Origin: a bacterium
GTDB taxonomy: Bacteria; UBA8248; JACPRG01; G963555815
NCBI GenBank assembly: GCA_965218795.1
Contig: OZ244653.1
Coordinates: 2,496,001-2,560,000, forward strand
DNA length: 64,000 nt
Direction: 5' to 3'
The first letter of the stretch is position 1, and each line of letters starts with the position of its first letter. A program made the translations under genes and the position numbers. Below are positions 16,428 through 39,641 of this stretch, in pieces. The notes under the pieces are model-generated. The model made no database searches. It had not been told where the DNA came from and was given only the letters and a program-made list of their open reading frames with translations.

Positions 16428-17237
16428 ATGGGGTTCGGTCGATGCGGACAGATAGGGTTTCCGGCCACACTTGCGCTGCTCCTTGCCATGAGTCTCCCCG
16501 GAACGGAGGCGGCCGAATCGGAGCCAACCCCCGTTTCCCGGTTTCCGATCCACCTCATGAACGGGAAGACCGGCGAGGCCGCCCGGCGGGTCTTGAAGGA
16601 CCATACTCTTTTCCGCGAGCGAAAATCGGCCTTCCGAAGCACGTCGAAGGTGTACGACTACCTTTTCAAGCGACTGCCGTTGGCCACCGACATGCTCCGT
16701 GTCCTCGAATTCTGAGGAAAGTATCAGATCGGCCATGGACCGGACGGCTCCTATACGATCGACTCGGGGACCGGCGTGAAGGGAAAATTTTGGATCCTCC
16801 ACGACGCCGATGGGCAAAAAATTCTTTACGGCGAAGGCGGATACTCGGGTTGGCTTATTCGCAACCTGGGCGGGCGCGCGACGGTTTCCGTGGCCTACAA
16901 GCCTGTTCAGGGAAAAGACGGTCTCGTTATGAAGAACCACATCATGGTGTTCGTCAAGATCGACAACGTGGTGGTGGATTTTCTGGTCAAGGCGCTGGAT
17001 TGGGCGATTCGCATCGTGGTCCGGAGTCAGGTGAATCAAGCCTCTTCATCCACGCGGAAGCTGGCTGAGGCCATCGCGCGGGAGCCCGGGAAGGTTTACG
17101 AAAAACTGCGCAAAAGTTCGGTCATCCCCCGGCCCTCCCTCAACGAGTTTCGGGCTCTGTTCCCGGGAGAAGATACCGCCTTCAGCTTCCCGTACCGGGC
17201 GCCGCGTGCTCCACGGCCGGCAACGGCTCACTCCTAG
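16428..17237 (+). pseudogene. Exported hypothetical protein interrupted by one in-frame TGA (16713-16715)
   Basis: ORFs 16404-16715 and 16776-17237 share a frame: ...RVLEF*GKYQIGHGPDG...; signal-peptide-like N-terminus. Confidence 0.7.
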
Positions 17238-18408
17238 ATCGGGCCTGGCTGGGCAGGCGAAAACTCAGCCAGGCGGCGATAAGCGAGGAGACCGTCACAA
17301 TCGTCAGGGTCGACTGAATCCCAAACTGATCGCCGAGCGCGCCTACGGCGATCAGCGCCAGGCTGCCTGTCCCGAAGGCCCCGCCCATCATCAGGCTGGA
17401 GACCAGGCCCGACTGGCCCGGGTGCATCTCCTGCGCCATGACCAGGTTCAGCGGACCCGACAGCATGAGGGTGATCCCTCCCAATACCATGAAGACTATG
17501 GAGATCCACCCTCGGGTGATCAGGAAGAGCGCGAGGCAGACGGAACCCAGCACCAGAGTGCTCCAAAGGAGACGCCGCCGGTCGAACCGGTCCCCCAGGT
17601 ACCCCCCCAGGAGCCCCCCGATCCCGCCTCCAATCAGATAACCGGAGACGGCCATGCCCCCCATCCAGTCGGATACATCCCGGGTCTTCATCAGGATGGG
17701 GATAAAGCCGGCGAAGGAGTTGTTCGTCACCGCGCGCAGGACGACGATCGTCCAGAGCAAAGAGATGGAGGGCAGGAGGCCCATCATGGATCCGAGAGGG
17801 GACGGAGGTTGAGCTTCTTTTGGCGCCCGTTCTTCCCGGACCGAGCCAAACTTGAAAAGCAATACTGAGATGACCAGCCCCGGGATCATGGAGATGTACG
17901 AATTTTGCAGCCCGAAAGCCGCGATGACGCCCAGGATCTCCAAGGGCCCGAGAGCCATGCCCAAGAAACCGCTCATTAAAAATATTGAAACGACCAAGCT
18001 GCTCCGCCGTCCTCCCGCCCGCCGGGCGAGGTCAGCCGCCGGGGGATGAAACGCCGCGGCCCCCACCCCACCCATGATCACCCACGGGAGCATCAGCTCG
18101 AAGGAGGGCAGGGCTCCCACTGAACCGATGAAGAGCGCGGTCACCAGCGGACCGCCGGCCAGCAGCCACCGTCCGCCCTTGCGGTCTGTCAGCCATCCGA
18201 ACACCGGCTGGCCGAAATTCGTGACCGTGAAAAACGCAGTGACCAGCCCGCCCGCTTCGGCAAGGGAGAGATCCCAGCGCGCAATGAAGTACGGCAGGAG
18301 AACGGCGATGAATCCCCCGTACGTATCCGTGATGAGGTGCGCAGCCGTCAGCAGGACGGCCCTCCTCATCTGGACGGCGCCCGCGGGATCGCTGTCAGGG
18401 CCTTTCAT
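17182..18408 (-). CDS. MFS transporter (Fsr-like)
   Basis: HLITDTY, QPVFGWLTDRKG, AAFHP, GGYLGDRFDRR; many TM segments. Confidence 0.93.
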   Translation of the reverse strand: MKGPDSDPAGAVQMRRAVLLTAAHLITDTYGGFIAVLLPYFIARWDLSLAEAGGLVTAFFTVTNFGQPVFGWLTDRKGGRWLLAGGPLVTALFIGSVGALPSFELMLPWVIMGGVGAAAFHPPAADLARRAGGRRSSLVVSIFLMSGFLGMALGPLEILGVIAAFGLQNSYISMIPGLVISVLLFKFGSVREERAPKEAQPPSPLGSMMGLLPSISLLWTIVVLRAVTNNSFAGFIPILMKTRDVSDWMGGMAVSGYLIGGGIGGLLGGYLGDRFDRRRLLWSTLVLGSVCLALFLITRGWISIVFMVLGGITLMLSGPLNLVMAQEMHPGQSGLVSSLMMGGAFGTGSLALIAVGALGDQFGIQSTLTIVTVSSLIAAWLSFRLPSQARSRSEPLPAVEHAAPGTGS

Positions 18409-18461
18409 GAAGGATCCTCATTGAAATCGCTCAGAAAAATGCCGGATGGATCCTCGAACCC

Positions 18462-19652
18462 CTATGCGCTCATCACGCCCGGATCGGGAACCTCTTTTCC
18501 CGCGTATACATGCTCTCGCGGCACCAGGACGCCCAGGCACGCGCAGATGAGCGGAGCAGCGATCACGCCGGTCAGCGTGATCGGGATCCCCACCCAATCG
18601 GCCGCGGCGCCGACACCGATAATCGCAAGGCTTCCCACGCCGTAGGCGAATCCCATCAACAGGCTGGCCAGAAAATTCGCGTGGGCCGGAAACATCTCTT
18701 GGGCCACGACGATATTAATCGGTCCGGATATCATCAGGAAGAATCCCCCGATGACGAGGAAAGCGATTGAAAGCACCCCTGCCGTGGCGACGAATACGCC
18801 GAGACAGGCCGCCGCCGCCAGCATGGTGACCACAATGAGGGTCCGACGGTTGAAGTGATCGGAAAGATACCCTCCAACGACGCCTCCCACGGCTCCGGCA
18901 GTCATGAAGATAGACAGCGCCAAGCCCCACGCCCAGACGGATGACCCGGAGGATTCCAACATGAGCGGCAGGAAGGTGCCGATGGCCTGGTGCGTAAAGT
19001 TTCTCAGGGCGACGATGGCCCAAAGGCCGGAGAGCGGGCACACCGCCGGCATCAGATCGGAGATCGGAGGCCGCCGGACCGCAGCCGCACGCTCCCCCAT
19101 GAAGGCGTACTTCCAGAGAAAAACGGAAACGACCACGCCGGGGAGAATCGTCAGGTAAGCCGAACCCAGTCCGAACCGAGTCACGACGGCCAGAATCTCC
19201 AGGGGCCCCAGCGCGACCCCCAGGAACCCTGACATGAGAAAAATGGACATGACCAGGGACCTGCGGTGCCCGCCCACACGGTACGCCAGTCCGGCGGCCG
19301 GAGGATGGAACGCCGCCGACCCCAAGCCCCCCGCCACCACCCAGACCAGAGCCCATTCAAAGCTGGGCAAAAGGGCCACCGACCCGACGAAGCAGGCGAT
19401 GACGAGGGGCCCCCCCGCCAGAAAAGCTCTTGCGCACCGACGGTCCGATATCAAGCCGAACAGGGGCTGGGCGAAGTAGGTGGCCGCCAGCAGGGCGGTG
19501 GCGAGTGCGCCGGCCTCTGTCAGGGAAATTCCCCACAGGGGAACCAGGAACGGAAGCAGGACTGCGATGAAGCCAAGGTACGTATCGGTCGTGAGATGGG
19601 TCGTGCTTACCAGAGCCACCTGACCCACCTGCAAGCGTTCGGCGCCTTTCAC
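18462..19652 (-). CDS. MFS transporter (Fsr-like), tandem paralog
   Basis: HLTTDTY, QPLFGLISDR, AAFHP, GGYLSDHFNRR. Confidence 0.93.
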   Translation of the reverse strand: MKGAERLQVGQVALVSTTHLTTDTYLGFIAVLLPFLVPLWGISLTEAGALATALLAATYFAQPLFGLISDRRCARAFLAGGPLVIACFVGSVALLPSFEWALVWVVAGGLGSAAFHPPAAGLAYRVGGHRRSLVMSIFLMSGFLGVALGPLEILAVVTRFGLGSAYLTILPGVVVSVFLWKYAFMGERAAAVRRPPISDLMPAVCPLSGLWAIVALRNFTHQAIGTFLPLMLESSGSSVWAWGLALSIFMTAGAVGGVVGGYLSDHFNRRTLIVVTMLAAAACLGVFVATAGVLSIAFLVIGGFFLMISGPINIVVAQEMFPAHANFLASLLMGFAYGVGSLAIIGVGAAADWVGIPITLTGVIAAPLICACLGVLVPREHVYAGKEVPDPGVMSA

Positions 19653-19682: not shown

Positions 19683-20711
19683 TCAGGGGAAGAGCGGCTC
19701 GCCGGAAGGGGTCAGCAGGGCGGGTCGCAAACGGGAGACGCGGCGGACGGCGTCCACCAGCAGGGCCACCGTGGCTTTATCCCCTTGAACCCCTTCCTGG
19801 AACCGGCAGGTCAGCGGCGGGTCGCCATCGATGATGACCTCATCGATGGACTTCACGCCCGCGACCGACATGATGATATGGAGAAGAATGTCTTCCCTTC
19901 CGTTGCGCCAACCCACGGCCTTCTGGTCGATCCCGGCCACCTGTCCCGGCTCCACGCGAACGTGATCGGTCTCCATGAGTGTCTCGGCCACTACCGGATC
20001 GAGAGTCATCTCGACCGAATCCAGCTCCCAGCCGAGACCGTGGGCGATGAGCCCGACCGATTCCCGGAATCCCGCGTGCCCGAGCCGTCCCTTTTTCTTT
20101 TCCTCTGCGAACCGGTCGACCGTCATTCCCGACCCGATCTTTTTTTGTAGCGGGCCCCTGCGCTGGGTCGCGTCCACCACCCGATGGGCCAGCACGCGGT
20201 CGACCCGCAGGCAGCACCGGGCCACCTGCAGACAGATGTGGTCCATGACAAACCCCGGATTGACGCCCACGGGGAGAATAGCCCGATCCCGCGCGACGGC
20301 CTTCTCGTTGAGACGGCGGGCGACCTCGACCCCCGCGACGACGGGCGGATAGGCCAACTCTTCGGTGGAGGAAACGACATGGCAACCGTGATCGAGGATC
20401 TGGTGATATTGCGACTCCACGTCGGTCAGCCACGAGGAGGTGGTGTGGACGACGACCTCGGGCGAGACCTCTTCAAGCACCTTGTCCGCATCGGGACGCA
20501 TGATCACCTCGGAGGCCGAGGGGTCACCCAGCAGTTCGCCGACCGTCTTCCCGATCTTGCCGGGATCGATGTCGATGGCGCCCACCAATTCCAAATCGGG
20601 CTGAGTCAGAAGGTGCCGGGCCGTTGCCTGCCCGATGGGGCCCAGGCCGTACGAAACTACGCGAATCGCTCGATGGTTGGTCAAGTTTCCGGTTCTCCCT
20701 GTCTCCGGCAA
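19683..20711 (-). CDS. DapB-related NAD(P)-dependent amine dehydrogenase (2,4-diaminopentanoate dehydrogenase-like family)
   Basis: Rossmann YGLGPIG, VVSSTEELAYP, GVNPGFVMD, RRVVDAT-like HRVVDATQRRGPLQKKIG, GDKAT. Confidence 0.82.
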   Translation of the reverse strand: MPETGRTGNLTNHRAIRVVSYGLGPIGQATARHLLTQPDLELVGAIDIDPGKIGKTVGELLGDPSASEVIMRPDADKVLEEVSPEVVVHTTSSWLTDVESQYHQILDHGCHVVSSTEELAYPPVVAGVEVARRLNEKAVARDRAILPVGVNPGFVMDHICLQVARCCLRVDRVLAHRVVDATQRRGPLQKKIGSGMTVDRFAEEKKKGRLGHAGFRESVGLIAHGLGWELDSVEMTLDPVVAETLMETDHVRVEPGQVAGIDQKAVGWRNGREDILLHIIMSVAGVKSIDEVIIDGDPPLTCRFQEGVQGDKATVALLVDAVRRVSRLRPALLTPSGEPLFP

Positions 20712-20721
20712 ATCGTTTCCG

Positions 20722-21636
20722 TTACATGTGGAGGTGGCTCTGGGCCTGTTCCACGATATCGATTCCCACCATTTCGGACCAGGCGTTCAGGAGTCTGTCG
20801 GTGATCGGTCCGGGGATATCCGTCGGGAATTTCACACCGTTGATACTGCACGCCGGGAGGATGTTGGGCGTCGTGCCGGTCAGAAACGCCTCCTGGCCGG
20901 TCATTACATCGTACACCGTGTAATCTCCTTCATGGACAGGAATGTCCGCCTGCCCCGCCAGTTCGAAGACCGTCTCGCGCGTGATGCCCGCCAGGACGTT
21001 CCGGGTGGTGGGCGTATGAAGATCTCCATCCTGGACGAAGAAGAAGTTTGCAGAGCTGTTTTCAGCGACTGCGCCGTCCACGTCCAACATCAGAGAGTGG
21101 GCCTCGGGATCCGCCGCTTGAGCCTCGCGATCGGCGAGGATGTGGTTCATCTTGTTCGAAACCTTCGCCTTCGGGTCCAAAGCCTGAGGGGGATTACGGC
21201 GGATCGACGGCGTCACCAGTCGGATGCCTTCGGTAAAGGCCCTTGAAAAAGGCTTCAGGTTGAGATTGATGCAGTACGCCGCCACCGTCGGCCCCGGGCG
21301 AGGATTGTCATCCCGGCCCAGAATGCCGAGCCCGCGCGTGACGTTTATCCACAAGGCGTAGTCCTCTTTGGGGCCCAAGAGCGGTCGGTTGCGCTCAAGC
21401 ACCTCTTCGCAAACCTTCTCGAACTCGTCAGGCGTCTCCTGAATGTCCAGGCGGGTGTAGGCCATGGAGCGATACAGCCGATCGACGTGCTCGCGGAGCT
21501 TGAACGGCTTTCCCGCGAACGTCCGCGCAACGTCGTACACCCCGTCTCCCACCCGGAACCCCATATCGAACAATGAGACGTGGGCTTGACTTTCCGGCAG
21601 AAACTCTCCGTTCAGATATACGATTCGCTCTGTCAT
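20722..21636 (-). CDS. Class IV PLP aminotransferase (BCAT/D-amino-acid aminotransferase-like)
   Basis: YLNGEF, GDGVYD, HVDRLYRS, PKAK, ENSSANFF, LAGITR, EAFLTGT. Confidence 0.93.
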   Translation of the reverse strand: MTERIVYLNGEFLPESQAHVSLFDMGFRVGDGVYDVARTFAGKPFKLREHVDRLYRSMAYTRLDIQETPDEFEKVCEEVLERNRPLLGPKEDYALWINVTRGLGILGRDDNPRPGPTVAAYCINLNLKPFSRAFTEGIRLVTPSIRRNPPQALDPKAKVSNKMNHILADREAQAADPEAHSLMLDVDGAVAENSSANFFFVQDGDLHTPTTRNVLAGITRETVFELAGQADIPVHEGDYTVYDVMTGQEAFLTGTTPNILPACSINGVKFPTDIPGPITDRLLNAWSEMVGIDIVEQAQSHLHM

Positions 21637-21640
21637 CGTT

Positions 21641-23752
21641 TCACCGCCTTTCCGACGTCTCCCTCGTCAACGTTCCTCTCTCAGGAGACAGGTTGGCCAG
21701 TTGACGCACATGCACCCAGTCTCCCGGATCGGCGCCGAGCACCGTTCGGCTGTAGGCGTCGAGATAGACCCTGGATTTTGTAGTCTTCCCATTGCACGAA
21801 ACCCGGTCTATCGGTCCCACCCATGCCCGAAGGGGTGCCGGGTGGGTCCCCCACAACTCCACGAGCTCCCCCGGCCGCAGGCCCAGCCGGGAGGCCAATC
21901 CCCGCGGCACGAAACACAGTCTCCTGCCGTTCACCAACGCATCCGCTCCGATCACCTCGGCGTCCTCCACCCTGGCGCGGATCCCTCGGGCCAGGGCGCG
22001 CCGTTTCGCCGCCGTTCGGCGTCTGTCGATCTTCAAGCCGAGGCTTCCCCTCCTCTCCGTCTGGAAAACGACCCCGTACAATGCCTCCGCTTCTTTTCGG
22101 GAGATATAGCCAGACAAGACGTCGGCGGCAACATCGTCCACAGGCCGAGTCAAGGGATCACCGTAACCTCCTCCCCCCCCGGACAGCATGACCAGACGGT
22201 CTCCGTACTGGATCGGAAAATCATGAGTCTTTCCTGGGGTTGGGATGTGGACTTCCTTGCCCCCGCGGAGGATGACGGCGGCCGTGGGCTTCCCCAAATG
22301 CCCGCCGCGCAGGCCGTAGCTCGGCAAGACGGCCCGATCCGCCAGCAGGGAATAGGTTCCTTCACTCAGGATACGGACCTGCCGTTTGGCCCCGAGCCCG
22401 CCCCTCCTCCATCCGGCCCCGCCGGAGTCGATCCGCAGGGTGGAACATTCCATGCGGACCGGAAATTCGTTTTCCAGCGCCTCGGCCGAATGGATGCAGC
22501 GCGTGTCTCCCTCATCGAACGCGGCCAACACGCTCTGTCCGTCGGATTCGGTGTACCCACCGCTTCCGCCCTTGGGCCATTCGTAGTATACGAAGCGGCG
22601 GCCGGTCTCCCGGTGGGTCCCCCCCACCATGTTGTGGAAAACGGTCCCGTACTGATCCGCGGGGACGCGGTCAGGGATGGCCTGGGCGAGCGCCCCGAGC
22701 ACCAAGCCGGTGGCCCGCTTCTCCACCTCGCAACACCCACCGACGGGCGCCGGGTGCAGCGCATTGAAGACGGTTCCTTCCGGAACCACCACGTCGATCG
22801 GCCGGAAGCTCCCGTGATTGACCGGATGGTCCGGGTCCAGAAGCGTCTTGATAGGGATGAATACGCCGCTGGCCGTAACGGCGTAAGAACAGTTAATGGG
22901 GTGCTCCACCTGAGAAGCGGTCCCCGTGAAGTCGGCGACGATGGACCGATCCTTGATCTCCAAACGGACGCAGCAACGCACCGGAACAAAATTTCCATCT
23001 TCGAAGCTTTCCAGGTAATCCTCGTAAAAATACTCGCCCGACGGAATATCGGCAATCTGTGCGCGAGTACGTGCCTCGGCCCGTTCGATGGACTTCTTGA
23101 TGCAGGCGGCCAGCGTTGGGGCCCCGTAACGGTCGATGAGCTCCCCGACGCTTCGATCGGCCAGCTTACACGCCGAGAGGTTCGCGCGAAAATCCCCCCG
23201 GCGATCCTCCGGCAGACGGCAATTGGCGAACAGCAGATCGAGGGCCGAATCGTTGGGACGGCCGCCGTCGTACACCCGGATCGGCGGGATGACCATGCCC
23301 TCCTGATAGATCTCGCGCGCCGCGCCCGAAAGACTCCCCGGAACCATCCCGCCCACGTCCAGCCAGTGCGCCCGAACCGCGGCGAAGAGGAACAATTCCT
23401 TGTTTGCAAAGACCGGCAAGGCGACCATCACGTCGTTGAGGTGCGTACCCCCATAGGCCGGATCGTTCACCAGGAAAACGTCCCCCGGCCGAATGTCGTC
23501 ACCATATCGCTCCATGACGTCCTTGACGGACCACGACATGGGAAGGACGTGCATCGGCAGGTCCTCGGACTGGGCGATCAGCTCTCCCTTTGGATCGAAC
23601 AGCCCGCAGGAGAAGTCGTGACCCTGGCACACCACGGACGAGTAAGCCGTTCGAATGACCGTCACGCGCATCTCACGGACAACGCTCAGGAAGGCTTCGA
23701 TGATCACTTCCAGCGTAATCGGATCGATTTTTCCGATTCGGTCGGGACTCAC
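21641..23752 (-). CDS. Hydantoinase B/oxoprolinase subunit with a C-terminal extension
   Basis: DPITLEV, RTAYS, DFSC, NDPAYGGTHLND, HWLDVGG, QEG, DSGGAG..RGG, GGGGGYGDP. Confidence 0.93.
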   Translation of the reverse strand: MSPDRIGKIDPITLEVIIEAFLSVVREMRVTVIRTAYSSVVCQGHDFSCGLFDPKGELIAQSEDLPMHVLPMSWSVKDVMERYGDDIRPGDVFLVNDPAYGGTHLNDVMVALPVFANKELFLFAAVRAHWLDVGGMVPGSLSGAAREIYQEGMVIPPIRVYDGGRPNDSALDLLFANCRLPEDRRGDFRANLSACKLADRSVGELIDRYGAPTLAACIKKSIERAEARTRAQIADIPSGEYFYEDYLESFEDGNFVPVRCCVRLEIKDRSIVADFTGTASQVEHPINCSYAVTASGVFIPIKTLLDPDHPVNHGSFRPIDVVVPEGTVFNALHPAPVGGCCEVEKRATGLVLGALAQAIPDRVPADQYGTVFHNMVGGTHRETGRRFVYYEWPKGGSGGYTESDGQSVLAAFDEGDTRCIHSAEALENEFPVRMECSTLRIDSGGAGWRRGGLGAKRQVRILSEGTYSLLADRAVLPSYGLRGGHLGKPTAAVILRGGKEVHIPTPGKTHDFPIQYGDRLVMLSGGGGGYGDPLTRPVDDVAADVLSGYISRKEAEALYGVVFQTERRGSLGLKIDRRRTAAKRRALARGIRARVEDAEVIGADALVNGRRLCFVPRGLASRLGLRPGELVELWGTHPAPLRAWVGPIDRVSCNGKTTKSRVYLDAYSRTVLGADPGDWVHVRQLANLSPERGTLTRETSERR

Positions 23753-25797: not shown

Positions 25798-25798
25798 T

Positions 25799-27826: not shown

Positions 27827-27872
27827 ACTCAGTCCTTTGTCATCTGCCGGAAGCGAACGAACCAGCCTCGGT

Positions 27873-31263: not shown

Positions 31264-31276
31264 CCACAATGCGCTC

Positions 31277-33565
31277 ATGAGTCGGGACAAGACGAACCTA
31301 TCGCTGATCGGCCGTCCCACGCCTGCATTGGAGGCCCCGGCCAAGGTGCAGGGACTGGCCGATTTCGTCACGGACCTCCAGCTGCCCGGGATGCTGCACG
31401 GCGCTGTCCTCCGGAGTCCCCACCCCCACGCCCGAATCGTCCGCGTAGACACCTCCAAAGCCGCCCGCGTCAACGGGGTCCGCGCGGTCATCTCAGGCCG
31501 TGACATCCCGAAAGTTCGGTGGGGGCACGACGTCCAAGACCAATCCGCTCTGGCTCTGGACCGCGTCCGTTTCGTGGGGGAGGAGGTGGCGGCCGTCGCC
31601 GCCGTCGACGAACACGCCGCCCGCGAGGCCCTGGAGAAAATCCGGGTAGAGTACGATCCCCTCCCCGCCGTGTTCACCATCGACGAGGCGATGGCCGAAG
31701 GCGCGCCTCGGCTCCAGGAAGACATCCCGGACAATATTCCGCAAGCAAAAAAGTTGCGGCGGGGTGACCCGGACGGGGGCTTCATGATGTCGGAGGCCGT
31801 TTATGAGAACGTCTTCGAGACCGCCATGCAGTATCAGGGCTACATGGAGCCTATCGGGACGGTGGCGGACGTCAGCCCTACAGGGAGGATCACGGTCTAC
31901 GCCGGGGTGCAGACCATTTTTGCGTGCAGGGAACGCGTGGCGGGCGCTTTGGGGATCCCTCTATCGCGGGTCCGGGTGATCCAACCCCACATGGGAGGGG
32001 CCTTCGGCGGGAAGTTGGTCGATGAGCCCAACGCCTCGCTGGCCGCCCTTCTCGCCCGGGCCGCGGGCCGTCCCGTCCGGCTGGTGAACAACCGGACCGA
32101 GGAGTTCCGCGCCGCCCGGCCGAGAGTGCCCATCCGCATCCGGATCCGCATGGGGGCGTCGTCGGAAGGAAAACTGCTGGCGAAAGATTCCGACATCCTG
32201 GGCGACGCCGGCGGGTACTGCGGCCGATGCATGAGGGTCCTCAACAACACCCTAGTCCGCATGGATAATTGCTACCGTATCCCGGCCGTCCAGGCCCGGG
32301 CGCGCGCGGTCTATACCAACCATCTTCCGACCGGCTCCTTTCGGGGAATGGGTAATCCCCAAATGGCCTTCGCGCACGAAGCCTGCCTCGATCACCTGGC
32401 GGATTCCTTGGGAATGGACCCGGTCGAGATCCGGATGAAGAATGCGATCCAGGAGGGAGACACATCGATTCACGGATGGAAGATCACCAGTTGCGGGCTT
32501 TCCGGCTGCATTCGCAAGGCGGCTGAAATCAGCGGGTGGAAGGAGAATCGAGGGACCCCGGACCGAAGGGATGGACCGCACAAATTACGCGGACTCGGGA
32601 TTGCGTGCGCGGTTCACGTCAGCGGAAACCGTTCGCACGGCGATTGGGACGGGGCGAATGCCGAAATCCGAATTCGGGAAGACGGCCGGGCGCATCTCGT
32701 GATTGGCGAGGGGGAGATCGGTCAGGGCGCCAATACGGTCCTTGCGATGATCGCCGCCGAAGCGATCGGCCTTCCCCTCGATCACATTGATCTTTCGCCC
32801 GCCGATACGGACCTGACGCCCCTGGGATACGGCGCCCGCGCCAGCCGTCTGACCTTCGTCGCCGGCAACGCCGTCCTCCGCGCGGCGGAGAAAGTCAAAA
32901 CCGAAATCGTCAACCTGGCGGCCGATGTCCTGGAGGCCTCACCCGAAGACCTCGAAATCCGGGACGGGAAGGTCTCTGTTTCGGGGAGCGGGGAGAAGGC
33001 GGTCACCGTCGAGACGTTGATCAAGGACTCTCTCTTCCGACCCGGCTGGGAGCCCATCGTCGCCAGTGCCACGTACGACCCCCCCTCGGCCATCCCCGAT
33101 GAGTCCAGATACGGAAATGTCTCGGGAGCCTACACCTTCACGGCCCAGATCGCCGAAGTCGAGGTCGACACCGAAACCGGATGCGTAGAAGTCCTTCGTC
33201 TCGTTGCGGCCGATGACATCGGAAGGCCCATCAATCCCCTGACGGCGGAGGGGCAGGTGGAGGGGGGCGTCATACAGGGGATGGGATGGGCGCTCTTCGA
33301 AAGGATAATCTTCGACGGGGGAGAAGTGATCAACGGAAGTCTGGGCGACTATCTCCTGCCGAAGGCGGAAGGGTCGCCGAGGGTCGAGACCGTTTTGGTC
33401 GAGACCGACGACCCCGTCGGCCCCTTTGGCGGCAAGGGAGGCTCGGAGACCCCCATCGATCCGACGGCCGCGGCCATTGCCAACGCTGTTTACCGTGCAA
33501 CCGGAGCGCGAATGACCACCCTGCCGATCACATCGGAGAAAATGTTGGGGGCTCTGAGGTCGTAA
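31277..33565 (+). CDS. Xanthine-dehydrogenase-family molybdopterin-binding large subunit (4-hydroxybenzoyl-CoA reductase alpha-like)
   Basis: LRSPHPHARI, MGGAFGGK, FRGMGNPQ, EIGQG, ASR, GQVEGG, GPFGGKGGSE. Confidence 0.93.
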   Translation: MSRDKTNLSLIGRPTPALEAPAKVQGLADFVTDLQLPGMLHGAVLRSPHPHARIVRVDTSKAARVNGVRAVISGRDIPKVRWGHDVQDQSALALDRVRFVGEEVAAVAAVDEHAAREALEKIRVEYDPLPAVFTIDEAMAEGAPRLQEDIPDNIPQAKKLRRGDPDGGFMMSEAVYENVFETAMQYQGYMEPIGTVADVSPTGRITVYAGVQTIFACRERVAGALGIPLSRVRVIQPHMGGAFGGKLVDEPNASLAALLARAAGRPVRLVNNRTEEFRAARPRVPIRIRIRMGASSEGKLLAKDSDILGDAGGYCGRCMRVLNNTLVRMDNCYRIPAVQARARAVYTNHLPTGSFRGMGNPQMAFAHEACLDHLADSLGMDPVEIRMKNAIQEGDTSIHGWKITSCGLSGCIRKAAEISGWKENRGTPDRRDGPHKLRGLGIACAVHVSGNRSHGDWDGANAEIRIREDGRAHLVIGEGEIGQGANTVLAMIAAEAIGLPLDHIDLSPADTDLTPLGYGARASRLTFVAGNAVLRAAEKVKTEIVNLAADVLEASPEDLEIRDGKVSVSGSGEKAVTVETLIKDSLFRPGWEPIVASATYDPPSAIPDESRYGNVSGAYTFTAQIAEVEVDTETGCVEVLRLVAADDIGRPINPLTAEGQVEGGVIQGMGWALFERIIFDGGEVINGSLGDYLLPKAEGSPRVETVLVETDDPVGPFGGKGGSETPIDPTAAAIANAVYRATGARMTTLPITSEKMLGALRS

Positions 33566-33769: not shown

Positions 33770-34762
33770 ATGGCGACGGTTTCAACCAAAGGGATGACCG
33801 AATCGGTTCTATGGCCGAGGCTTCGGGACTACTGGCTGCCCGTCGCCTTCAGCGAAGAGGTGGGCGACAAGCCCCTGCCCGTCCGACTGCTCGACGAACG
33901 CCTGGCCATCTGCCGCCTGGGCGATGAAGTTGCCGCCTTCTACGACCTGTGCATCCACCGGGGCACCCCCATCTCGCTGGGCCGGATCGAAAACGGCGAG
34001 GTCGTCTGCGCCTACCACGGCTGGTCGTACAATGCCGAAGGCCGCTGCACGCGAATCCCCTCGGTCCCCTCCGCGCACCCGATTCCCAAAAAGGCCTGCC
34101 TGACCCGGTACCGGGCGCAGGAGCGGTACGGGCTCGTGTGGGTTTTCATGGGGGAGGGGGAGCCTCGGGCGCCGATTCCCGCGTTTCCGCCCCTGGAGGA
34201 TCCGAGTTTCCACGTCATTTTTCGGGACAAACGGCATTGGGACTGCAGCGCCGCCCGGGCCATCGAAAACTTCTTCGATTTCGGACATTTCGCGTGGGTG
34301 CACGACGGAATCCTGGGAACCCGCGATCAACCGATCCCGCCTGAGGTCACGTTGGAAAGAGACGGCGAATACATCCGCTTCCAGGCCCATGAAAGACCCA
34401 ACTCCACTCACACCATTCCGCATGAGCGCAGGTACATCGTTTCCCGCCCCTTTTCGATTTACCAAAGGAAAGAGGAGCCCGACGGCAAGACGGAGGCGCT
34501 GATCTTCGTCTGTCAGCCCGTCAGCGCGGGTGAATGCTTCAGATTCATGTTTGTCGCCCGGAATTATGAAGGCGGCCCGTATGCGGGCAAAGAAAAAAAC
34601 TTTGCGCTCCAGGATTTGCTGGCTGAACAGGACCGTTTGATCGTCGAAAACCAGAGGCCCGAAGAGCTCCCGCTGGACCTTGCGGAGGAGCTTCACATCA
34701 AAGGTCCGGATGCCCTCGCGCTGGCCTACCGGAGATTCCTGGGAGATCTCGGCGTTGAGTAA
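33770..34762 (+). CDS. Rieske non-heme iron oxygenase (VanA/NdmA-like demethylase group), copy 1
   Basis: CIHRG...CAYHGW Rieske motif; ENFFDFGHFAWVH iron motif; EQDR; QRPEELPLDL; start may be the ATG at 33794. Confidence 0.94.
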   Translation: MATVSTKGMTESVLWPRLRDYWLPVAFSEEVGDKPLPVRLLDERLAICRLGDEVAAFYDLCIHRGTPISLGRIENGEVVCAYHGWSYNAEGRCTRIPSVPSAHPIPKKACLTRYRAQERYGLVWVFMGEGEPRAPIPAFPPLEDPSFHVIFRDKRHWDCSAARAIENFFDFGHFAWVHDGILGTRDQPIPPEVTLERDGEYIRFQAHERPNSTHTIPHERRYIVSRPFSIYQRKEEPDGKTEALIFVCQPVSAGECFRFMFVARNYEGGPYAGKEKNFALQDLLAEQDRLIVENQRPEELPLDLAEELHIKGPDALALAYRRFLGDLGVE

Positions 34763-35403
34763 GACCGGCTCCGTCCGTAACGACTCAAAGTAGAGGACTC
34801 CTTGATGACAACGGCCGGCACCAAAGGGATGACCGAATCGGTTCTATGGCCGAGGCTTCGGGACTACTGGCTGCCCGTCGCCTTCAGCGAAGAGGTGGGC
34901 GACAAGCCCCTGCCCGTCCGACTGCTCGACGAACGCCTGGCCATCTGCCGCCTGGGCGATGAAGTTGCCGCCTTCTACGACCTGTGCATCCACCGGGGCA
35001 CCCCCATCTCGCTGGGCCGGATCGAAAACGGCGAGGTCGTCTGCGCCTACCACGGCTGGTCGTACAATGCCGAAGGCCGCTGCACGCGAATCCCCTCGGT
35101 CCCCTCCGCGCACCCGATTCCCAAAAAGGCCTGCCTGACCCGGTACCGGGCGCAGGAGCGGTACGGGCTCGTGTGGGTTTTCATGGGGGAGGGGGAGCCT
35201 CGGGCGCCGATTCCCGCGTTTCCGCCCCTGGAGGATCCGAGTTTCCACGTCATTTTTCGGGACAAACGGCATTGGGACTGCAGCGCCGCCCGGGCCATCG
35301 AAAACTTCTTCGATTTCGGACATTTCGCGTGGGTGCACGACGGAATCCTGGGAACCCGCGATCAACCGATCCCGCCTGAGGTCACGTTGGAAAGAGACGG
35401 CGA
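33785..35403 (+). repeat. 584-bp direct repeat (33785-34368 and 34820-35403, offset 1035)
   Basis: Identical by eye from accaaagggatgacc to gaaagagacggcga; alternative-frame ORF translations across both copies are also identical. Confidence 0.95.
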
Positions 35404-35803
35404 CGAGCTCCGTTTCTCTGCCTCGAGACCGGCGAGCGAACATCATGCGGTCCACGCGGTCGATCACCGAAACAATTACCGGGTGATCCGCCCCTTCTCG
35501 ATTCATCAATGGAAGGTGGAACCGGACGGAAAAACGGAGGCTTTCTGCTACACGGTCATGCCCGTCTCGGCAGGCGAGTGCAACCGGTTTTTCATGACGG
35601 CCCGAAACTATGAGGGCGGTCCCTACGGCGGCGACCAGCACGCCGAGCTTCAGAACATCGTGGCGGAACAGGACCGCGTTATCGTTGAGAGCCAGAGGCC
35701 CGAGGAGCTGCCTTTAGACCTCACCGAGGAGCTGCACATCAAGGGACCCGACGCGCCCGCCCTCCAGTACCGAAAGATGTTGGGAGAGCTGGGCGTTGAG
35801 TAA
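34802..35803 (+). CDS. Rieske non-heme iron oxygenase, copy 2
   Basis: N-terminal ~195 aa identical to copy 1, diverged C-terminal domain; start may be the ATG at 34829. Confidence 0.94.
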   Translation: MMTTAGTKGMTESVLWPRLRDYWLPVAFSEEVGDKPLPVRLLDERLAICRLGDEVAAFYDLCIHRGTPISLGRIENGEVVCAYHGWSYNAEGRCTRIPSVPSAHPIPKKACLTRYRAQERYGLVWVFMGEGEPRAPIPAFPPLEDPSFHVIFRDKRHWDCSAARAIENFFDFGHFAWVHDGILGTRDQPIPPEVTLERDGDELRFSASRPASEHHAVHAVDHRNNYRVIRPFSIHQWKVEPDGKTEAFCYTVMPVSAGECNRFFMTARNYEGGPYGGDQHAELQNIVAEQDRVIVESQRPEELPLDLTEELHIKGPDAPALQYRKMLGELGVE

Positions 35804-35859: not shown

Positions 35860-37230
35860 ATGCCCTTCGATGATCCACGGGATTTTCTGGAGTATCTGGA
35901 GGAGCGGAAGGAGCTTCTACGAATCACCGATGAGGTGAACCCGGAATTCGATATCGGCGCCTACATCCGGAAGACCTCCGATCAGCAGGGACCCGCCCTG
36001 CTCTTCGAGAATGTCAAAGGGCACAATATGGTTGTCGTTGGCGGTATCTTCGCGACGCGACGGCGCGCGCTCATGGCCCTGGAAGCGCCTCGGGAGGAAA
36101 TCAACGATTTCTTCTTTGAAGGGATCATGAACCCCATCCCGCCAAGGCTGGTGGAGAGCGGACCTTGCAAAGAAGTCATTCTGAAGGGGGAGGACGTCGA
36201 TCTCGCTAACCTTCCGATCCCCATCTACGCCAAGGGAGACGGCGGGGCATTCATCACACACGGCGTCCAGATCAGCAAAGACCCCGATACGGGAACCAAG
36301 AATGCGTCCATCTACCGCATGCAGCTGCAAGGCAAGCGTCAGATGGGCGTCCTCTGTGAAGGGTACCACGACCTTTACCGCCAGTACGTCAAAGCCGAAG
36401 CGAAAGGGAGGCCCTTGGAGGTCGCCGTGGCGCTGGGAGTCGACCCGGTGGTGATGCTGGCCACGCAGGTTCGGGCAGGGTACGGTCAGGACGAAATGGA
36501 TTACGCCGGGGGGCTGAGACGCAAAGCGGTCGACCTGGTCAAATGCGAGACCGTGGATCTGGAAGTCCCCGCCGCCGCCGAGATCGTCATCGAGGGGCTG
36601 ATGATGCCTCACCATCGGGAGCCGGAGGGCCCGTTCGGCGAATACTCCGGCTACTACGGTCCGGCCCGGGAACGCCCGATTGTGGAGATCACGGCGATCA
36701 CCCACCGAAGGGATCCCATCTACCATGCGGGCCTGACGGGCGCGCCGATGACGGAAAACCATTTCCTGAAGGTCCTCCCGTATGAGATGACAATGTACAA
36801 GGATCTGAAGGCGGCCTTCCCGGGTATCCAGGCCGTCCACTACACGGCGGCGGGCTGCTGCGAGTACATGGTCTACGTCAGCATGGAGACCACCTTCCGG
36901 GGCGAGGGACGCAATGCTCTCATGGCCGTTCTCGGCCACGTTCTCCATCCGAAATACGCGGTCGTCATGGACGACGACATTGACATCTTCCAGGATGAGC
37001 AAGTGCTCTGGGCCATCGCCACGCGCGCCCAGCCCCGGGAGGACATCGTCGTCATCCCCAAGTACCCCAGCCCGGCGCTGGATCCGACGGTGCCCGAGGG
37101 GACGCTCGGATCGGCGATGGGCATCGACGCGACGCGGCCCTTTGGGGAGCCGTTCCCGGATGTCCCGGTGCATCCCGGCCTGGAGAAAATTCCCGACCTG
37201 GTCGCGATGGTCCGTGAGGGGACCGCGTAA
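35860..37230 (+). CDS. ubiD: UbiD-family prFMN-dependent (de)carboxylase, second (distant) paralog
   Basis: GPALLFENVKG, DGGAFIT, NASIYR, VPAAAEIVIEG, EGPFGEYSGYY, DDDIDI, MGIDAT. Confidence 0.94.
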   Translation: MPFDDPRDFLEYLEERKELLRITDEVNPEFDIGAYIRKTSDQQGPALLFENVKGHNMVVVGGIFATRRRALMALEAPREEINDFFFEGIMNPIPPRLVESGPCKEVILKGEDVDLANLPIPIYAKGDGGAFITHGVQISKDPDTGTKNASIYRMQLQGKRQMGVLCEGYHDLYRQYVKAEAKGRPLEVAVALGVDPVVMLATQVRAGYGQDEMDYAGGLRRKAVDLVKCETVDLEVPAAAEIVIEGLMMPHHREPEGPFGEYSGYYGPARERPIVEITAITHRRDPIYHAGLTGAPMTENHFLKVLPYEMTMYKDLKAAFPGIQAVHYTAAGCCEYMVYVSMETTFRGEGRNALMAVLGHVLHPKYAVVMDDDIDIFQDEQVLWAIATRAQPREDIVVIPKYPSPALDPTVPEGTLGSAMGIDATRPFGEPFPDVPVHPGLEKIPDLVAMVREGTA

Positions 37231-37288
37231 ACCCAACCGCATCGCAACATTTGGATTTTGATTCTTCACACGCCAAGGAGAGAACGAG

Positions 37289-38887
37289 ATGGCGGGCGCA
37301 TACGATGTGATTGTCATCGGCGCGGGGTCGAACGGCCTGACCCTGGCAAGTTACCTGGCGAAGGGGGGACAAAAAGTTCTCGTCCTCGAGCGGCTCCCTT
37401 ACCCTGGCGGGGGTGTCACCTCCCGGGAGATCATTCCTGGATTCACGACTTCCCCTCACGCCGTCAATCACAACTGGGTGCATACCGGACCCATCCGAAA
37501 GGATCTGGAGTTGGAAAAGTTCGGCTCCCAGTACATCTTCCCCGAGATCATTTACAGCCATATCTTCAGCGACGGACGAAGCCTGACCCTCTATCGGGAT
37601 CTCGAGTCGACCGTCGCCGAAATCGCAAAATTCTCGAAGAACGACGCGGCCCGATATCGCGACTGGATCCGGGAAAACGAACCAACGTTCGAATTCATCA
37701 CGCGGGCGACATACGCGCCGCCGCGGCCTTTTTCCAAACTCTTCGGATTGCTCGAAGAGACCCCGTCCGGCATGCGGGCCCTGAAGAACTGGCTCGGCAG
37801 CGTTGATGACGTAGCGGACGCCCTGTTCGAGGATGAATGCGTGAAGGTCTGGTTCATCGTCTATTGCAGCCAGACGGTCCAGGAACCCCACGCGAAAGGG
37901 ACCGGGCTGATCCCCGTCGCGCTGCTTGTCAACCAGCACCGGGCCGGCGGAAACTCTCTGTCGGTCGGGGGGTCCCAAAGCATGACGACGGCCCTCGTGG
38001 CCTGCCTCGAAGCGCACGGGGGCGAGCTCCGAACGGGTTGCCACGTCTCACGGATTCTGACGGATGGCGACCGCGCAACCGGTGTGGCCCTCTCGGACGG
38101 AACGAGGATCGAAGCCGCCCGCGCGGTCGTGAGCAACGCGGAGCCCCACCAGGTCTTTCAAGAGATGGTCGATGGAAAACACCTCCCGGAGGAGTTCAGC
38201 GACCAGATCCGCAATTTCCGGTTCGTCCACTTTACGATTTTCGGCCTTCATCTCGCCCTGGAGGAAAACCCCGTCTACCGATGCGAGGACGACGCGCCCA
38301 ACCAGGCATTCAACGCCCAGATTGGCATCGATACACAGGACGAAATCCGGAAGCACTTCTATGAGCTGAGCATCGGAGAACCGCCCGCCGAGCCCGGCTT
38401 TATGGTCCTCCACCCGACCCGCTACGATCCCTCCATCGCCCCCCCGGGCAAGCACGTCACGATCATCTGGCAATACGGCCCCTGTCATCCCCGGGGCGGG
38501 GACCAGCGTTGGGATGAGATCAAGGAGGAGTATGCGGACCTGTGCATGGGGGTCTACAAGCGGTTCACCAAGAATATGACGGACGCGTCCGTCATCGGCC
38601 GGTTGGCCTACACCCCGCTCGACATCGCCCGGGAGAACATCTCAATGGTCGGCGGAGACATGATCAGCGGTCAGACATTGCTGGACCAAGCCGGCGTCTT
38701 TCGCCCCTTCCACGGGTATCCGCCCTACCGGACGCCTGTCGATGGGCTGTACCTCTGCGGACCGAGCACCCATCCCCGAGGAGGATGTCACGGAGCCTGC
38801 GGGTACAATGCCGCCGGCGCCGTCGCCGAAGACATCGGGATGAAACCCTGGTGGGCCGGCACGGAGTATCCAATCCTGAAGAATTGA
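37289..38887 (+). CDS. Phytoene-desaturase-like FAD-dependent oxidoreductase
   Basis: YDVIVIGAGSNGL, VLER, GGSQSMT.AL, YTPLD, YRTPVDGLYLCGPSTHPRGG. Confidence 0.9.
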   Translation: MAGAYDVIVIGAGSNGLTLASYLAKGGQKVLVLERLPYPGGGVTSREIIPGFTTSPHAVNHNWVHTGPIRKDLELEKFGSQYIFPEIIYSHIFSDGRSLTLYRDLESTVAEIAKFSKNDAARYRDWIRENEPTFEFITRATYAPPRPFSKLFGLLEETPSGMRALKNWLGSVDDVADALFEDECVKVWFIVYCSQTVQEPHAKGTGLIPVALLVNQHRAGGNSLSVGGSQSMTTALVACLEAHGGELRTGCHVSRILTDGDRATGVALSDGTRIEAARAVVSNAEPHQVFQEMVDGKHLPEEFSDQIRNFRFVHFTIFGLHLALEENPVYRCEDDAPNQAFNAQIGIDTQDEIRKHFYELSIGEPPAEPGFMVLHPTRYDPSIAPPGKHVTIIWQYGPCHPRGGDQRWDEIKEEYADLCMGVYKRFTKNMTDASVIGRLAYTPLDIARENISMVGGDMISGQTLLDQAGVFRPFHGYPPYRTPVDGLYLCGPSTHPRGGCHGACGYNAAGAVAEDIGMKPWWAGTEYPILKN

Positions 38888-38903
38888 ACGAAGGAGGGTA
38901 CGG

Positions 38904-39641
38904 GTGGCATCGATTCAACCCTTCGAGATCCGGGTCAACGGCAATCCGGTTCCCGCGTATCTCGCCATGCCCGCCGAGGAAGGCCCCCACCCGGGCTTAA
39001 TCGTCATGTCGGAGATTTTCGGCGTCAACGAAAACCTCAAGAATGTCTGCATGAGACTGGCGGACCAGGGGTACGCGGCGGCGACGGTCGATCATTTCCA
39101 TCGTGAGGAAGAGTCCACCTCGCCCTTCGACCGACCGGAAATCGGGCTGGAGAAGCGTTCCAGGCTGAAGGACGTCGAGCTCATCGCGGAGATGCGCACC
39201 GCGGTCGATGATCTAAAAACCCTCGATGCCGTCAACGCCGATCGCATCGGCTCGCTCGGGTTCTGTCTGGGAGGACGCCTATCCTATCTGGCGGCCTGCA
39301 CGATTCCGGACCTGGCCGCCTGTGTGGTCTTCTATGGAGGGGGGATCGTCAATGACAGTCCAACGGAGAACATGCCGGTGCCCCCGGTCGAGATGACCGC
39401 GAACATCCGGTGCCCCGTGCTCGCCCATTATGCGGAAGAGGACCATACGGTCCCGCAGGAACACCTGGAACGAATCCGACAGGCCCTCAAGGACCACGGC
39501 AAAGAGCACGAGGTCATTCAGTACCCAGGCACCATCCACGGCTTCGCCAACGACAGCAAGCCGGACTCCTACGAGCCCGTGTCAGCCAAGCTGGCCTGGG
39601 AACGTACGCACGCATTTCTTGAAAACCACCTGAAGGCTTAA
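38904..39641 (+). CDS. Dienelactone hydrolase family protein
   Basis: EIFGVN, GFCLGG (Cys nucleophile), FYG, EED, YPGTIHGF, AWERT. Confidence 0.94.
   Translation: MASIQPFEIRVNGNPVPAYLAMPAEEGPHPGLIVMSEIFGVNENLKNVCMRLADQGYAAATVDHFHREEESTSPFDRPEIGLEKRSRLKDVELIAEMRTAVDDLKTLDAVNADRIGSLGFCLGGRLSYLAACTIPDLAACVVFYGGGIVNDSPTENMPVPPVEMTANIRCPVLAHYAEEDHTVPQEHLERIRQALKDHGKEHEVIQYPGTIHGFANDSKPDSYEPVSAKLAWERTHAFLENHLKA

Follow-up and report, generated by a model that had tools for sequence, protein, structure and literature searches.

The analysed window is a stretch of 64,000 nucleotides (C1:2496001-2560000) from the genome of an uncultured bacterium (G000), which consists of a single contig, C1, of 5.17 Mb with 60.5% G+C. 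This text concerns a divergent cluster of 16 open reading frames (ORFs) at positions 17182-39641 of the window (Table 1). The left arm, on the minus strand, comprises in order of transcription a cyclase (Cyc), two hydantoinase B subunits flanking an A subunit (HyuB1, HyuA, HyuB2), a class IV aminotransferase (AT4), an amine dehydrogenase (AmDH) and two MFS transporters (MFS2, MFS1). The right arm, on the plus strand, is formed by UbiD1, a class II aldolase-fold protein (Ald2), a molybdenum-hydroxylase large subunit (MoL), two Rieske oxygenases (Rie1, Rie2), UbiD2, a CrtI/CrtO-like flavin adenine dinucleotide (FAD) oxidoreductase and a dienelactone-hydrolase family protein (DLH). The arms diverge from a 220-bp gap (28638-28857), as described in the first-pass annotation, which was made from the sequence alone. 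The families and coordinates given there were recovered by the Pfam scan for all 16 ORFs, and NCBIfam concurs at family level, placing no catabolic enzyme of the cluster into a named equivalog.

To refine the gene starts, start codons and ribosome-binding sites were considered together with the stops that occur in the orthologous sequence of a genome of the same genus (G001). The refined starts are 30529 for Ald2 (ATG preceded by GGAGG), 31277 for MoL, 25797 for HyuA (ATG, supported by the stops that G001 carries upstream), 27826 for HyuB1 and 20684 for AmDH (TTG, chosen because G001 has a stop upstream). Spacings in the left arm range from a 4-nt overlap up to 53 nt. In the right arm they are 13-58 nt, except for UbiD1/Ald2 (228 nt) and MoL/Rie1 (204 nt). 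Both arms look like catabolic operons.

Table 1. Genes of the divergent cluster and of its right flank, with window positions and supporting matches.
Feature	Position	Strand	Support
MFS transporter 1	17182..18408	-	PF07690 E 4.4e-34; 49% identical to neighbouring MFS; G001 orthologue 76%
MFS transporter 2	18462..19652	-	PF07690 E 2e-26; G001 orthologue 76%
AmDH, 2,4-diaminopentanoate dehydrogenase family	19683..20684	-	DAP_DH_C E 1.3e-31; NF040740 243 bits, cut-off 400
AT4, class IV (BCAT / D-amino-acid type) aminotransferase	20722..21636	-	PF01063 E 5.9e-47; NCBIfam matches all under cut-offs
HyuB2, hydantoinase/oxoprolinase B subunit; predicted C-terminal double-psi beta-barrel ~21644-21990	21641..23752	-	PF02538 E 1e-171
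HyuA, ATP-binding hydantoinase/oxoprolinase A subunit	23749..25797	-	Hydant_A_N, Hydantoinase_A, Hydant_A_C
HyuB1, second B subunit; predicted C-terminal barrel 25802-26150	25799..27826	-	PF02538 E 2.6e-173
Cyc, metal-dependent amidohydrolase of cyclase family	27873..28637	-	PF04199 E 1.6e-34
UbiD1, PhdA-clade prenylated-FMN (prFMN) decarboxylase	28858..30300	+	three UbiD Pfam domains
Ald2, class II aldolase-fold protein, probably decarboxylase	30529..31263	+	PF00596
MoL, orphan molybdenum-hydroxylase large subunit	31277..33565	+	Ald_Xan_dh_C, MoCoBD_1, MoCoBD_2
Rie1, alpha-only Rieske oxygenase, NdmA/SxtT clade	33770..34762	+	Rieske and VanA_C domains
Rie2, tandem Rie1 paralogue, VanA-type Rieske oxygenase	34802..35803	+	nucleotide comparison with Rie1
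UbiD2, HmfF-clade prFMN decarboxylase	35860..37230	+	three UbiD domains
CrtI/CrtO-like FAD oxidoreductase	37289..38887	+	DAO and Amino_oxidase; NF045689 249.5 bits, cut-off 1000
DLH, dienelactone-hydrolase family	38904..39641	+	PF01738 E 1.1e-52; 2 copies in genome
Short HTH ORF	39764..40099	+	HTH_29 E 5e-5; IS481 NF033577 20.8 bits, E 2.3e-4, N-terminus only (weak match)
TPP-dependent decarboxylase-like (phosphonopyruvate/sulfopyruvate decarboxylase type)	40395..41534	-	TPP_enzyme_C; TIGR03297 111 bits, cut-off 312

The UbiD, UbiD_N and UbiD_C domains of both decarboxylases exceed the Pfam cut-offs; against TIGR00148 (cut-off 244.85 bits) UbiD2 scores 415 bits and UbiD1 falls just under it (238.8 bits). 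The best solved relative of UbiD1 is 7PDA (389 bits, E 2.2e-115, full length; next solved UbiD 142 bits), described as the phenazine-1-carboxylate decarboxylase PhdA (PMC10850782). Two further paralogues in the genome, 45-47% identical to UbiD1, are equally PhdA-like. UbiD2 aligns over its full length with PtHmfF (6H6V; 343 bits, E 2.2e-101), followed by VdcC (237 bits) and AnInD (177 bits). The UbiDs had been compared in the first-pass annotation with decarboxylases of indole and pyrrole carboxylates, but the enzymes of that type, AnInD (indole) and HudA/PA0254 (pyrrole), score far lower than PhdA and HmfF. The alignments keep N-V-G-T-Y-R and E-G-P-F-G-E in UbiD1, and N-A-S-I-Y-R and E-G-P-F-G-E in UbiD2; the catalytic arginine and the E-x-x-x-x-E motif are those of Fdc1 (R173, E277 and E282). 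In UbiD2, H296 of PtHmfF is retained as His, R304 is replaced by Tyr and R331 by Glu; we take these three PtHmfF residues to bind the distal carboxylate of furandicarboxylate (FDCA). Two PF02441 matches are present in the genome, a 218-aa frame of UbiX size (C1:1275870-1276376) and a 452-aa frame of CoaBC size, and neither gene is located in the cluster.

The third decarboxylase could be Ald2, whose best solved relative is Mlr6791 (2z7b, 5.6e-17), presumably the 3-hydroxy-2-methylpyridine-4,5-dicarboxylate decarboxylase of vitamin B6 breakdown; NovR and TqaM are also among its matches. The NCBIfam model of 3,4-dihydroxyphthalate decarboxylase (PhtC, NF053537) gives 99.4 bits with a cut-off of 200.

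MoL contains the hammerhead, MoCoBD_1 and MoCoBD_2 domains and aligns over its full length with the alpha subunit of 4-hydroxybenzoyl-CoA reductase (4-HBCR; 1rm6_A, 7.8e-131). CoxL, 6-hydroxypseudooxynicotine dehydrogenase, quinoline oxidoreductase and nicotinate dehydrogenase are the next matches. No small-subunit (Fer2_2) or medium-subunit (FAD_binding_5) gene lies within 4 kb of MoL, and the nearest ones (C1:2446756 and 2449942) are about 75 kb off. The genome contains 28 Fer2_2 and 25 FAD_binding_5 genes; 43 of its 70 MoL genes, that of the cluster included, have no small or FAD subunit gene within 4 kb, and five small-subunit genes have no MoL at that distance; stand-alone FAD/FeS pairs occur, for example, near C1:1806437/1807537. 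The GAOR isozymes of Sulfolobus are described as combining different L subunits with one common M/S scaffold (PMC4726530). By analogy, a shared FAD/2Fe-2S scaffold would be the simplest way for the orphan MoL to work.

Rie1 is closest to the methylxanthine N-demethylase NdmA (6icp, 1.1e-49, 173 bits), then to SxtDIOX (2.2e-42), SxtT and NdmB; phthalate dioxygenase reaches 86 bits versus 173 for NdmA. The CxH...CxxH Rieske motif and the DxxHxxxxH mononuclear-iron motif are present together with an alpha-only VanA_C catalytic domain. No NdmD-like reductase occurs among the 16 ORFs, and no genome-wide search was made for one. Rie1 and Rie2 have 100% identical DNA over about 575 nt of their 5' halves (nucleotides ~25-600), and their identity falls to about 60% in the final 400 nt. 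Such a distribution is consistent with a recent gene conversion that covered the Rieske and iron-site half, the substrate-binding halves being diverged; the duplication is older than the conversion, since G001 has a Rie2-specific orthologue. The FAD enzyme has distant solved relatives only, the best being CrtI (4dgk, 1.6e-16).

In the left arm, the best solved relatives of HyuB2 are N-methylhydantoinase (7hk5, 1.5e-80) and the caprolactamase subunit CapB (6yra, 7.5e-78), followed by the ketone carboxylases Apc (delta subunit, 2.3e-38) and Acx (alpha subunit, 5e-19). Because hydrolases far outscore ketone carboxylases, the enzyme is assigned to the hydrolase (lactam/hydantoin) branch; a carboxylase reading of the Hyu genes was rejected at a difference of about 40 orders of magnitude. 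The equivalog scores are 483.5 bits for HyuA (CapA, NF050156) and 313 and 288 bits for the two HyuB proteins (CapB), each with a cut-off of 1000.

Hydantoinase-type hydrolases are described as being normally encoded by a hydAB pair (PMC5214803), and CapB as the dimeric core of the (alpha-beta)2 caprolactamase (PMC8453981). The present gene order is B-A-B, which is also found in G001, G004 and G006, and HyuB1 is 63% identical to HyuB2. From this conserved order, the two B paralogues and the dimeric CapB core, we infer, reasonably and by analogy, that the Hyu complex would have a heterodimeric beta-beta' core. Both HyuB proteins carry a C-terminal extension of about 100 residues, which within the genome occurs only in these two genes. 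The AlphaFold model of this domain of HyuB2 (8 orthologous sequences; mean pLDDT 68, about 84 in the core) matches the double-psi beta-barrel (DPBB) of VCP/CDC48 N-domains with a Foldseek E of 1e-7 and a target TM of 0.75-0.84. A word-based search with the HyuB2 C-terminus, an insensitive method, returned its own cluster only (1 of 1777 candidates). In the profile search of the barrel domain, which covered 1.84 billion proteins, 305 representatives were obtained (E <= 0.001); 15 of these were scanned, and 14 proved to be Hydantoinase_B proteins or fragments with the C-terminal domain and one was of CDC48 type. Judging from these matches, the HyuB-barrel fusion is a small subfamily that extends beyond this genome.

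The cyclase keeps the metal motif HSGTHFDAQNH (family form HxGTHxDxPxH). Isatin hydrolase, cited in the first-pass annotation as an enzyme of this family, is absent among its solved-structure matches; these comprise a weak one to kynurenine formamidase (4cog, 9.6e-8) and one to 1r61. TIGR03035 gives 39.8 bits (cut-off 223), and ESM Atlas returns only 'cyclase family protein'. AmDH is a single-copy gene (one tblastn match in the genome).

The relatives named above (PhdA, HmfF, NdmA, Mlr6791, N-methylhydantoinase and caprolactamase) differ from the indole and pyrrole enzymes of the first-pass annotation. As resemblances of moderate score, they point to heteroaromatic, mostly N-containing, carboxylates and to cyclic amides as the probable substrates.

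For the conservation of the cluster, the order offers only 7 species genomes and the phylum 51. Three contigs of G001 together reproduce the arrangement with identities of 75-87%: one carries Ald2-UbiD1 diverging from Cyc-HyuB1-HyuA-HyuB2; another HyuB2-AT4-AmDH-MFS2-MFS1, then two diverged ORFs, YchF and PhnD; and the third Rie2-UbiD2-FAD-DLH. The MoL-Rie1 stretch is missing from that assembly. A 19.5-kb public metagenome contig, about 95% identical, bridges both arms (19800-32304), and the UbiD1/Ald2 spacer is its sole replaced stretch. Near-identical DNA occurs in many public sequencing runs, and one run labelled sponge metagenome has a relative of about 95% identity across the whole stretch. 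Among the sequences compared, the full arrangement was found only in G001 and the ~95%-identical contig.

In the sister genus g4, the right arm is preserved as a module on one strand of G004 (C5:388-408k): UbiD' (36%)-MoL (73%)-FAD' (34%)-Rie (77%)-UbiD2 (79-87%, frameshifted)-DLH (69%)-Ald2 (72%). This locus converges on a 73% orthologue of the thiamine-pyrophosphate (TPP) gene at 40395-41534, and the contigs of G006 agree. The UbiD and FAD slots of the g4 module are held by non-orthologous paralogues, which suggests that those functions are required in it. The adjoining position of the TPP gene and Ald2 in G004, a neighbourhood conserved in another genus, is also the reason for which the TPP gene probably belongs to the right-arm module of the present locus.

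The left arm has its own conserved core in g4. Both G004 and G006 contain HyuB1 (73%)-SBP-HyuA (75%)-HyuB2 (77%)-AT4 (81%), where SBP is a binding protein of the SsuA/NMT1 type. This module is located beside the same PhnD/ABC genes, in G006 also beside YchF, and is followed in G004 by insertion sequence (IS) transposases. It lies on another contig, and the cluster genes of g4 are distributed over at least five loci on two contigs.

Three of the g4 orthologues, those of UbiD1 in G004 and G006 and that of UbiD2 in G004 (L009:16521-17959, L011:11143-12584 and L022:10123-11480), align as two pieces in different frames. These split genes are either frameshifted pseudogenes or assembly errors.

More distant genomes retain less. 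The best Cyc and UbiD1 matches in G003 are of 47-48%, and no orthologue was found with these queries. No match for MoL, UbiD2, FAD, HyuA or Cyc was obtained in G002, a small genome of genus g2; UbiD1 and Ald2 were not found in G002 and G005, and relatives of these two were found in none of 42 genomes of the phylum's main family. The HyuA-seeded locus search, which applies to the phylum alone, returned only the same-genus contig and paralogous A-B pairs of 39-40% identity (2 of 46 genome-contig and 2 of 94 metagenome-contig candidates). The first-pass annotation had proposed conserved co-occurrence as a check on its cluster: it holds for G001 and the ~95% contig, but not outside the genus.

The 22 kb is a composite, since the right-arm module and the Hyu-AT4 core are each conserved across genera, at separate loci. 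On sequence comparison, UbiD1, Cyc, the FAD enzyme, AmDH and the MFS genes appear to have joined the two modules in this genus.

The host belongs to a family that has hugely expanded the same enzyme families. tblastn detected 70 MoL, 40 UbiD, 22 HyuA, 21 HyuB, 19 VanA-type Rieske and 12 CrtI-like FAD genes in the genome (41 matches for UbiD by Pfam), and just 1 AmDH, 2 DLH and 4 Ald2. With 70, 40 and 22 paralogues in the genome, the co-occurrence of the key families is less remarkable. No other 22.5-kb stretch of the genome has at least four of the five expanded families. Random placement brought all five together in 27 of 2000 trials, a figure that flatters the locus because the families were chosen from the locus itself. 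Twelve of the 40 UbiD genes are located within 5 kb of a MoL gene (mean of 5.1 and maximum of 13 in 1000 shuffles). Only this pairing is enriched genome-wide, and the other tested pairings are near expectation at 5 kb, the obligate HyuA-HyuB pair excepted.

Neighbouring UbiD and orphan MoL genes were also observed at C1:5134930-5138639 (directly adjacent), at C1:4014519-4018591 (divergent) and in G004 (L022:14450-18140). The recurrence of UbiD with MoL hints at a repeated two-enzyme unit. The 2.1-Mb genomes of the sister genus g2 lack these expanded families. The lineage seems to have made this chemistry its speciality.

Alignment of the divergent region 28638-28857 to G001, which has an insertion of about 180 bp there, leaves one conserved block at ~28744-28777, the rest being diverged. 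The block reads GTTGAC ... TGAAC-GTTTGT-TA-GTTTGT with a direct repeat and could be an operator or part of a promoter. Within 28638-28857, the scan called no sigma-70 consensus site. The promoter scan was uninformative, with 4 promoter-like sites versus 3.4 expected and 10 terminator-like sites versus 17.7 expected. Rfam gave three matches over 15000-42500, all under the gathering score and none a riboswitch, and no RNA run is present among the public sequencing runs listed as containing the sequence. A run that may be of RNA (X20) yielded a few contigs of 150-210 nt on HyuB2, HyuB1, MoL and DLH, either identical or with one mismatch, from which no conclusion on expression is drawn.

The reading that we place first, and to which we give about even weight, is that the locus is a composite particular to this genus, and not an ancient 22-kb cluster of one pathway: at least two independently conserved catabolic modules, for heteroaromatic acids and for cyclic amides, would have been joined with several single genes. 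The gene content, the operon-like packing, the conservation of the modules, the nearest characterised relatives and the intact catalytic motifs are observed; what we infer is all the substrates, the sequence of reactions and any passage of a lactam between the arms, from right to left. The right-arm module would comprise MoL, the CrtI-like flavoenzyme, one or both NdmA-clade Rieske oxygenases, UbiD2, DLH, Ald2 and the TPP gene, joined in this genus by UbiD1. Under oxic conditions it could trim and activate a polycarboxylate or N-methylated acid of aromatic, probably N-heteroaromatic, type. The two prFMN-dependent UbiDs and Ald2 could account for as many as three non-oxidative decarboxylations, and the Rieske pair for hydroxylation or N-demethylation. 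MoL would hydroxylate beside the ring nitrogen with formation of a lactam-type product, borrowing the shared FAD/2Fe-2S scaffold because it has no subunit genes of its own. The left-arm module would consist of HyuB1-HyuA-HyuB2-AT4, with Cyc, AmDH and the two MFS transporters added in this genus. It could import a cyclic amide and open the ring at the expense of ATP by means of an unusual alpha-beta-beta' hydrolase of the hydantoinase/lactamase type, after which transamination or oxidative deamination would take off the liberated amino group. A single pathway served by both arms in this genus is conceivable, and in our judgement its chance falls somewhat short of even.

A number of observations weigh against this reading. 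The genome has 146 family units in its 5.17 Mb, so that some of them are bound to lie close together. The gaps of 228 and 204 nt mean that the right arm could be divided into up to three transcription units, and neither a regulator nor a substrate was found for the locus. In g4, the Cyc orthologue (80%) is part of an SDR-Cyc-M20 operon that adjoins genes for protocatechuate 3,4-dioxygenase, the FAD orthologue (70%) stands with an SDR and a YheO-type regulator, and UbiD1 (75%; two halves in different frames in G004 and G006) is located beside an aldehyde:ferredoxin oxidoreductase (AFOR) gene; from this dispersal it follows that physical linkage of the arms is not required. The MoL orthologue of G003 (71%) has no other cluster genes in the 20 kb retrieved with it. 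Finally, the nearest NCBIfam models include enzymes of carbocyclic aromatics (phenylphosphate carboxylase beta, VdcC, PhtC and 4-HBCR), all of them under the cut-offs, by which an N-free aromatic acid becomes possible for the right arm.

The first-pass annotation proposed an N-heterocycle catabolic cluster. The operon-like arms, the heteroaromatic relatives, the lactamase branch of the Hyu genes and the presence of AT4 and AmDH agree with it, and the 22 kb has turned out not to be a conserved unit. In its strict form, the whole 22 kb would be one dedicated pathway for a single N-heteroaromatic substrate, with decarboxylation, hydroxylation of the ring, opening of a lactam and removal of the nitrogen as its steps, which we regard as unlikely. 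The chemistry is coherent, since Mo-hydroxylation would provide a lactam, an ATP-dependent lactamase would open it and an aminotransferase would take the nitrogen. The divergence of the arms from one 220-bp region with a conserved block, and the retention of the full arrangement in G001 and the bridging ~95% contig, also speak for it, as do the Hyd-type gamma-lactamases predicted in indoleacetate metabolism (PMC5214803). However, the g4 components are found at no fewer than five loci, on two contigs and in different company, no Cyc or UbiD1 orthologue was found in G003 (best matches 47% and 48%), and three decarboxylases with two Rieske oxygenases suggest several related substrates.

Comparison with known systems bears on the same question. 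In the iaa pathway of Aromatoleum/Azoarcus, a Hyd-type gamma-lactamase likewise acts alongside ring oxidation of an N-heterocycle, as far as the predictions cited above describe it. No AMP-binding (CoA ligase) or CoA-transferase domain occurs among the 16 ORFs of the present locus, which has oxygen-dependent Rieske enzymes; the iaa route is reportedly CoA-dependent and anaerobic. The anaerobic indoleacetate-type route considered in the first-pass annotation is disfavoured by both features, the Rieske oxygenases and the missing CoA ligase.

The nearest described logic is that of the lumazine/pterin cluster I of Cupriavidus sp. LA-1, described as combining a Mo-dehydrogenase and UbiD in N-heterocycle breakdown (Doi et al. 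2025, PMC12391406). There, as here, a molybdenum hydroxylase and a prFMN-dependent UbiD are encoded in one cluster, in the lumazine case for an N-heteroaromatic ring, and in the lumazine clusters of some lineages only the Mo-binding subunit is reported within the cluster (PMC12391406). The amidase-signature isomerase, pterin deaminase and dedicated UbiX described for the lumazine cluster are absent from our locus, which in turn has Rieske oxygenases, UbiD2, the class-II-aldolase-fold protein Ald2 (probably a decarboxylase) and the ATP-dependent Hyu hydrolase as additional enzymes.

Next in likeness are the furoate cluster hmf, the N-demethylation of caffeine and the breakdown of caprolactam. 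In the hmf logic, a UbiD is paired with the large subunit of a Mo-hydroxylase (HmfABC), and UbiD2 aligns full length with HmfF, but a CoA ligase and HmfB/C-type subunits are lacking here. PhdA of Mycolicibacterium fortuitum shares full-length alignment and the catalytic motif with UbiD1, although no phenazine-specific partner genes were recognised at the locus. The alpha-only VanA-type architecture of Rie1 is common to NdmA/NdmB (6ICP, 6ICL) and SxtT/SxtDIOX, and Rie1 and Rie2, like NdmA and NdmB, are a paralogue pair differing in the substrate-binding half; the match is moderate, however (173 bits), and the cluster has no NdmD-type reductase and no NdmC/E. CapAB caprolactamase (6YRA; PMC8453981) and N-methylhydantoinase (7HK5) are of the same hydrolase branch, and an aminotransferase gene comes next, as described for caprolactam breakdown; the differences are the three genes in B-A-B order, the extra CDC48-N-like barrels, the class IV type of the aminotransferase and scores far below the equivalog cut-offs. 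Each of these systems has at most two or three gene types in common with the locus. Literature searches returned no description of this gene combination and no matching cluster, in line with the first-pass annotation, which had not recognised it as a described one.

Alternatively, the right arm could be devoted to N-free aromatic acids of the phthalate, hydroxybenzoate or methoxybenzoate type and the left arm to an unrelated lactam or amino-acid route, their adjacency arising from gene saturation. This we consider rather improbable. The NCBIfam scores (PhtC 99, phenylphosphate carboxylase beta 280, VdcC 354 and 4-HBCR alpha 605 bits) favour it, yet all are under the cut-offs, and heteroaromatic enzymes come first in the solved-structure searches (PhdA 389 versus 142 bits, HmfF 343 versus 237 for VdcC, NdmA 173 versus 86). 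The VanA_C domain of the Rieske proteins and the presence of DLH are consistent with N-free substrates. Saturation is made plausible by the paralogue numbers (70 MoL, 40 UbiD, 22 HyuA and 19 Rieske genes), by pairings which, except for UbiD-MoL, are near random expectation and by the dispersal of the arms in g4. Against it stands the uniqueness of the locus as a 22.5-kb stretch with at least four of the five expanded families, together with the 27 of 2000 placements that joined all five.

A bolder extension of the composite reading, which we hold to be improbable as a joint claim, wires the Hyu enzyme of this genus to the right arm as an undescribed aerobic route. One HyuA would act with a core of two different HyuB subunits, whose barrels would bring in a partner or a substrate of large size. 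The starting compounds would be N-heteroaromatic acids with several rings (phenazine, quinoxaline, pteridine or purine type), which would be stripped of carboxyl and N-methyl groups and converted to lactams by the orphan Mo subunit on the shared FAD/FeS scaffold, their nitrogen then being mineralised.

A biosynthetic cluster for the tailoring of heteroaromatic natural products, with the UbiDs as carboxylases (UbiD reactions are reversible) and SxtT-like Rieske tailoring hydroxylases, is scarcely credible: SxtT and SxtDIOX, the second and third relatives of Rie1, are biosynthetic Rieske hydroxylases, and NovR and TqaM are among the Ald2 matches, but no nonribosomal peptide synthetase, polyketide synthase, terpene synthase or ATP-grasp is present among the 16 ORFs, and the importers, aminotransferase, amine dehydrogenase and ATP-driven ring-opening hydrolase indicate breakdown.

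Further genes were noted around the cluster. At the right boundary, the ORF at 39764..40099 is possibly an IS481-type transposase remnant, according to its weak N-terminal match. On the left, two ORFs between YchF and the cluster (15644-16333 and 16400-17068) match no family; the corresponding ORFs of G001 reach only 37-46% identity, versus 72-86% for the neighbours, and the third-position G+C content (GC3) of the latter ORF is 0.43 versus ~0.75-0.8 for the cluster genes. A 180-aa ORF at 46129-46671 matches only the last ~110 positions of MoCoBD_2 and, because the match is limited to the end of this domain, is probably a remnant of another MoL gene. Adjoining it, at 46842-47591, is an isochorismatase-family hydrolase resembling RutB and biuret amidohydrolase, under the cut-off. 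A TonB-dependent receptor and a third VanA-type Rieske oxygenase are encoded at 54535-57270 and 58079-59110.

Clusters that combine a Mo-hydroxylase, UbiD and an amide hydrolase are of importance for the bacterial breakdown of stable N-heterocycles, such as nicotinate, lumazine and furan- or purine-type acids, for which few routes have been worked out. The composite described here offers a testable enzyme set: two UbiDs resembling PhdA and HmfF, a pair of NdmA-like Rieske oxygenases, the orphan MoL and a hydantoinase of three genes. Sponge symbionts are described as having large expansions of the coxL family with mostly unknown substrates, Tectomicrobia averaging 29 per genome (PMC8941161), and loci of this kind could make the substrates of those expansions experimentally tractable.

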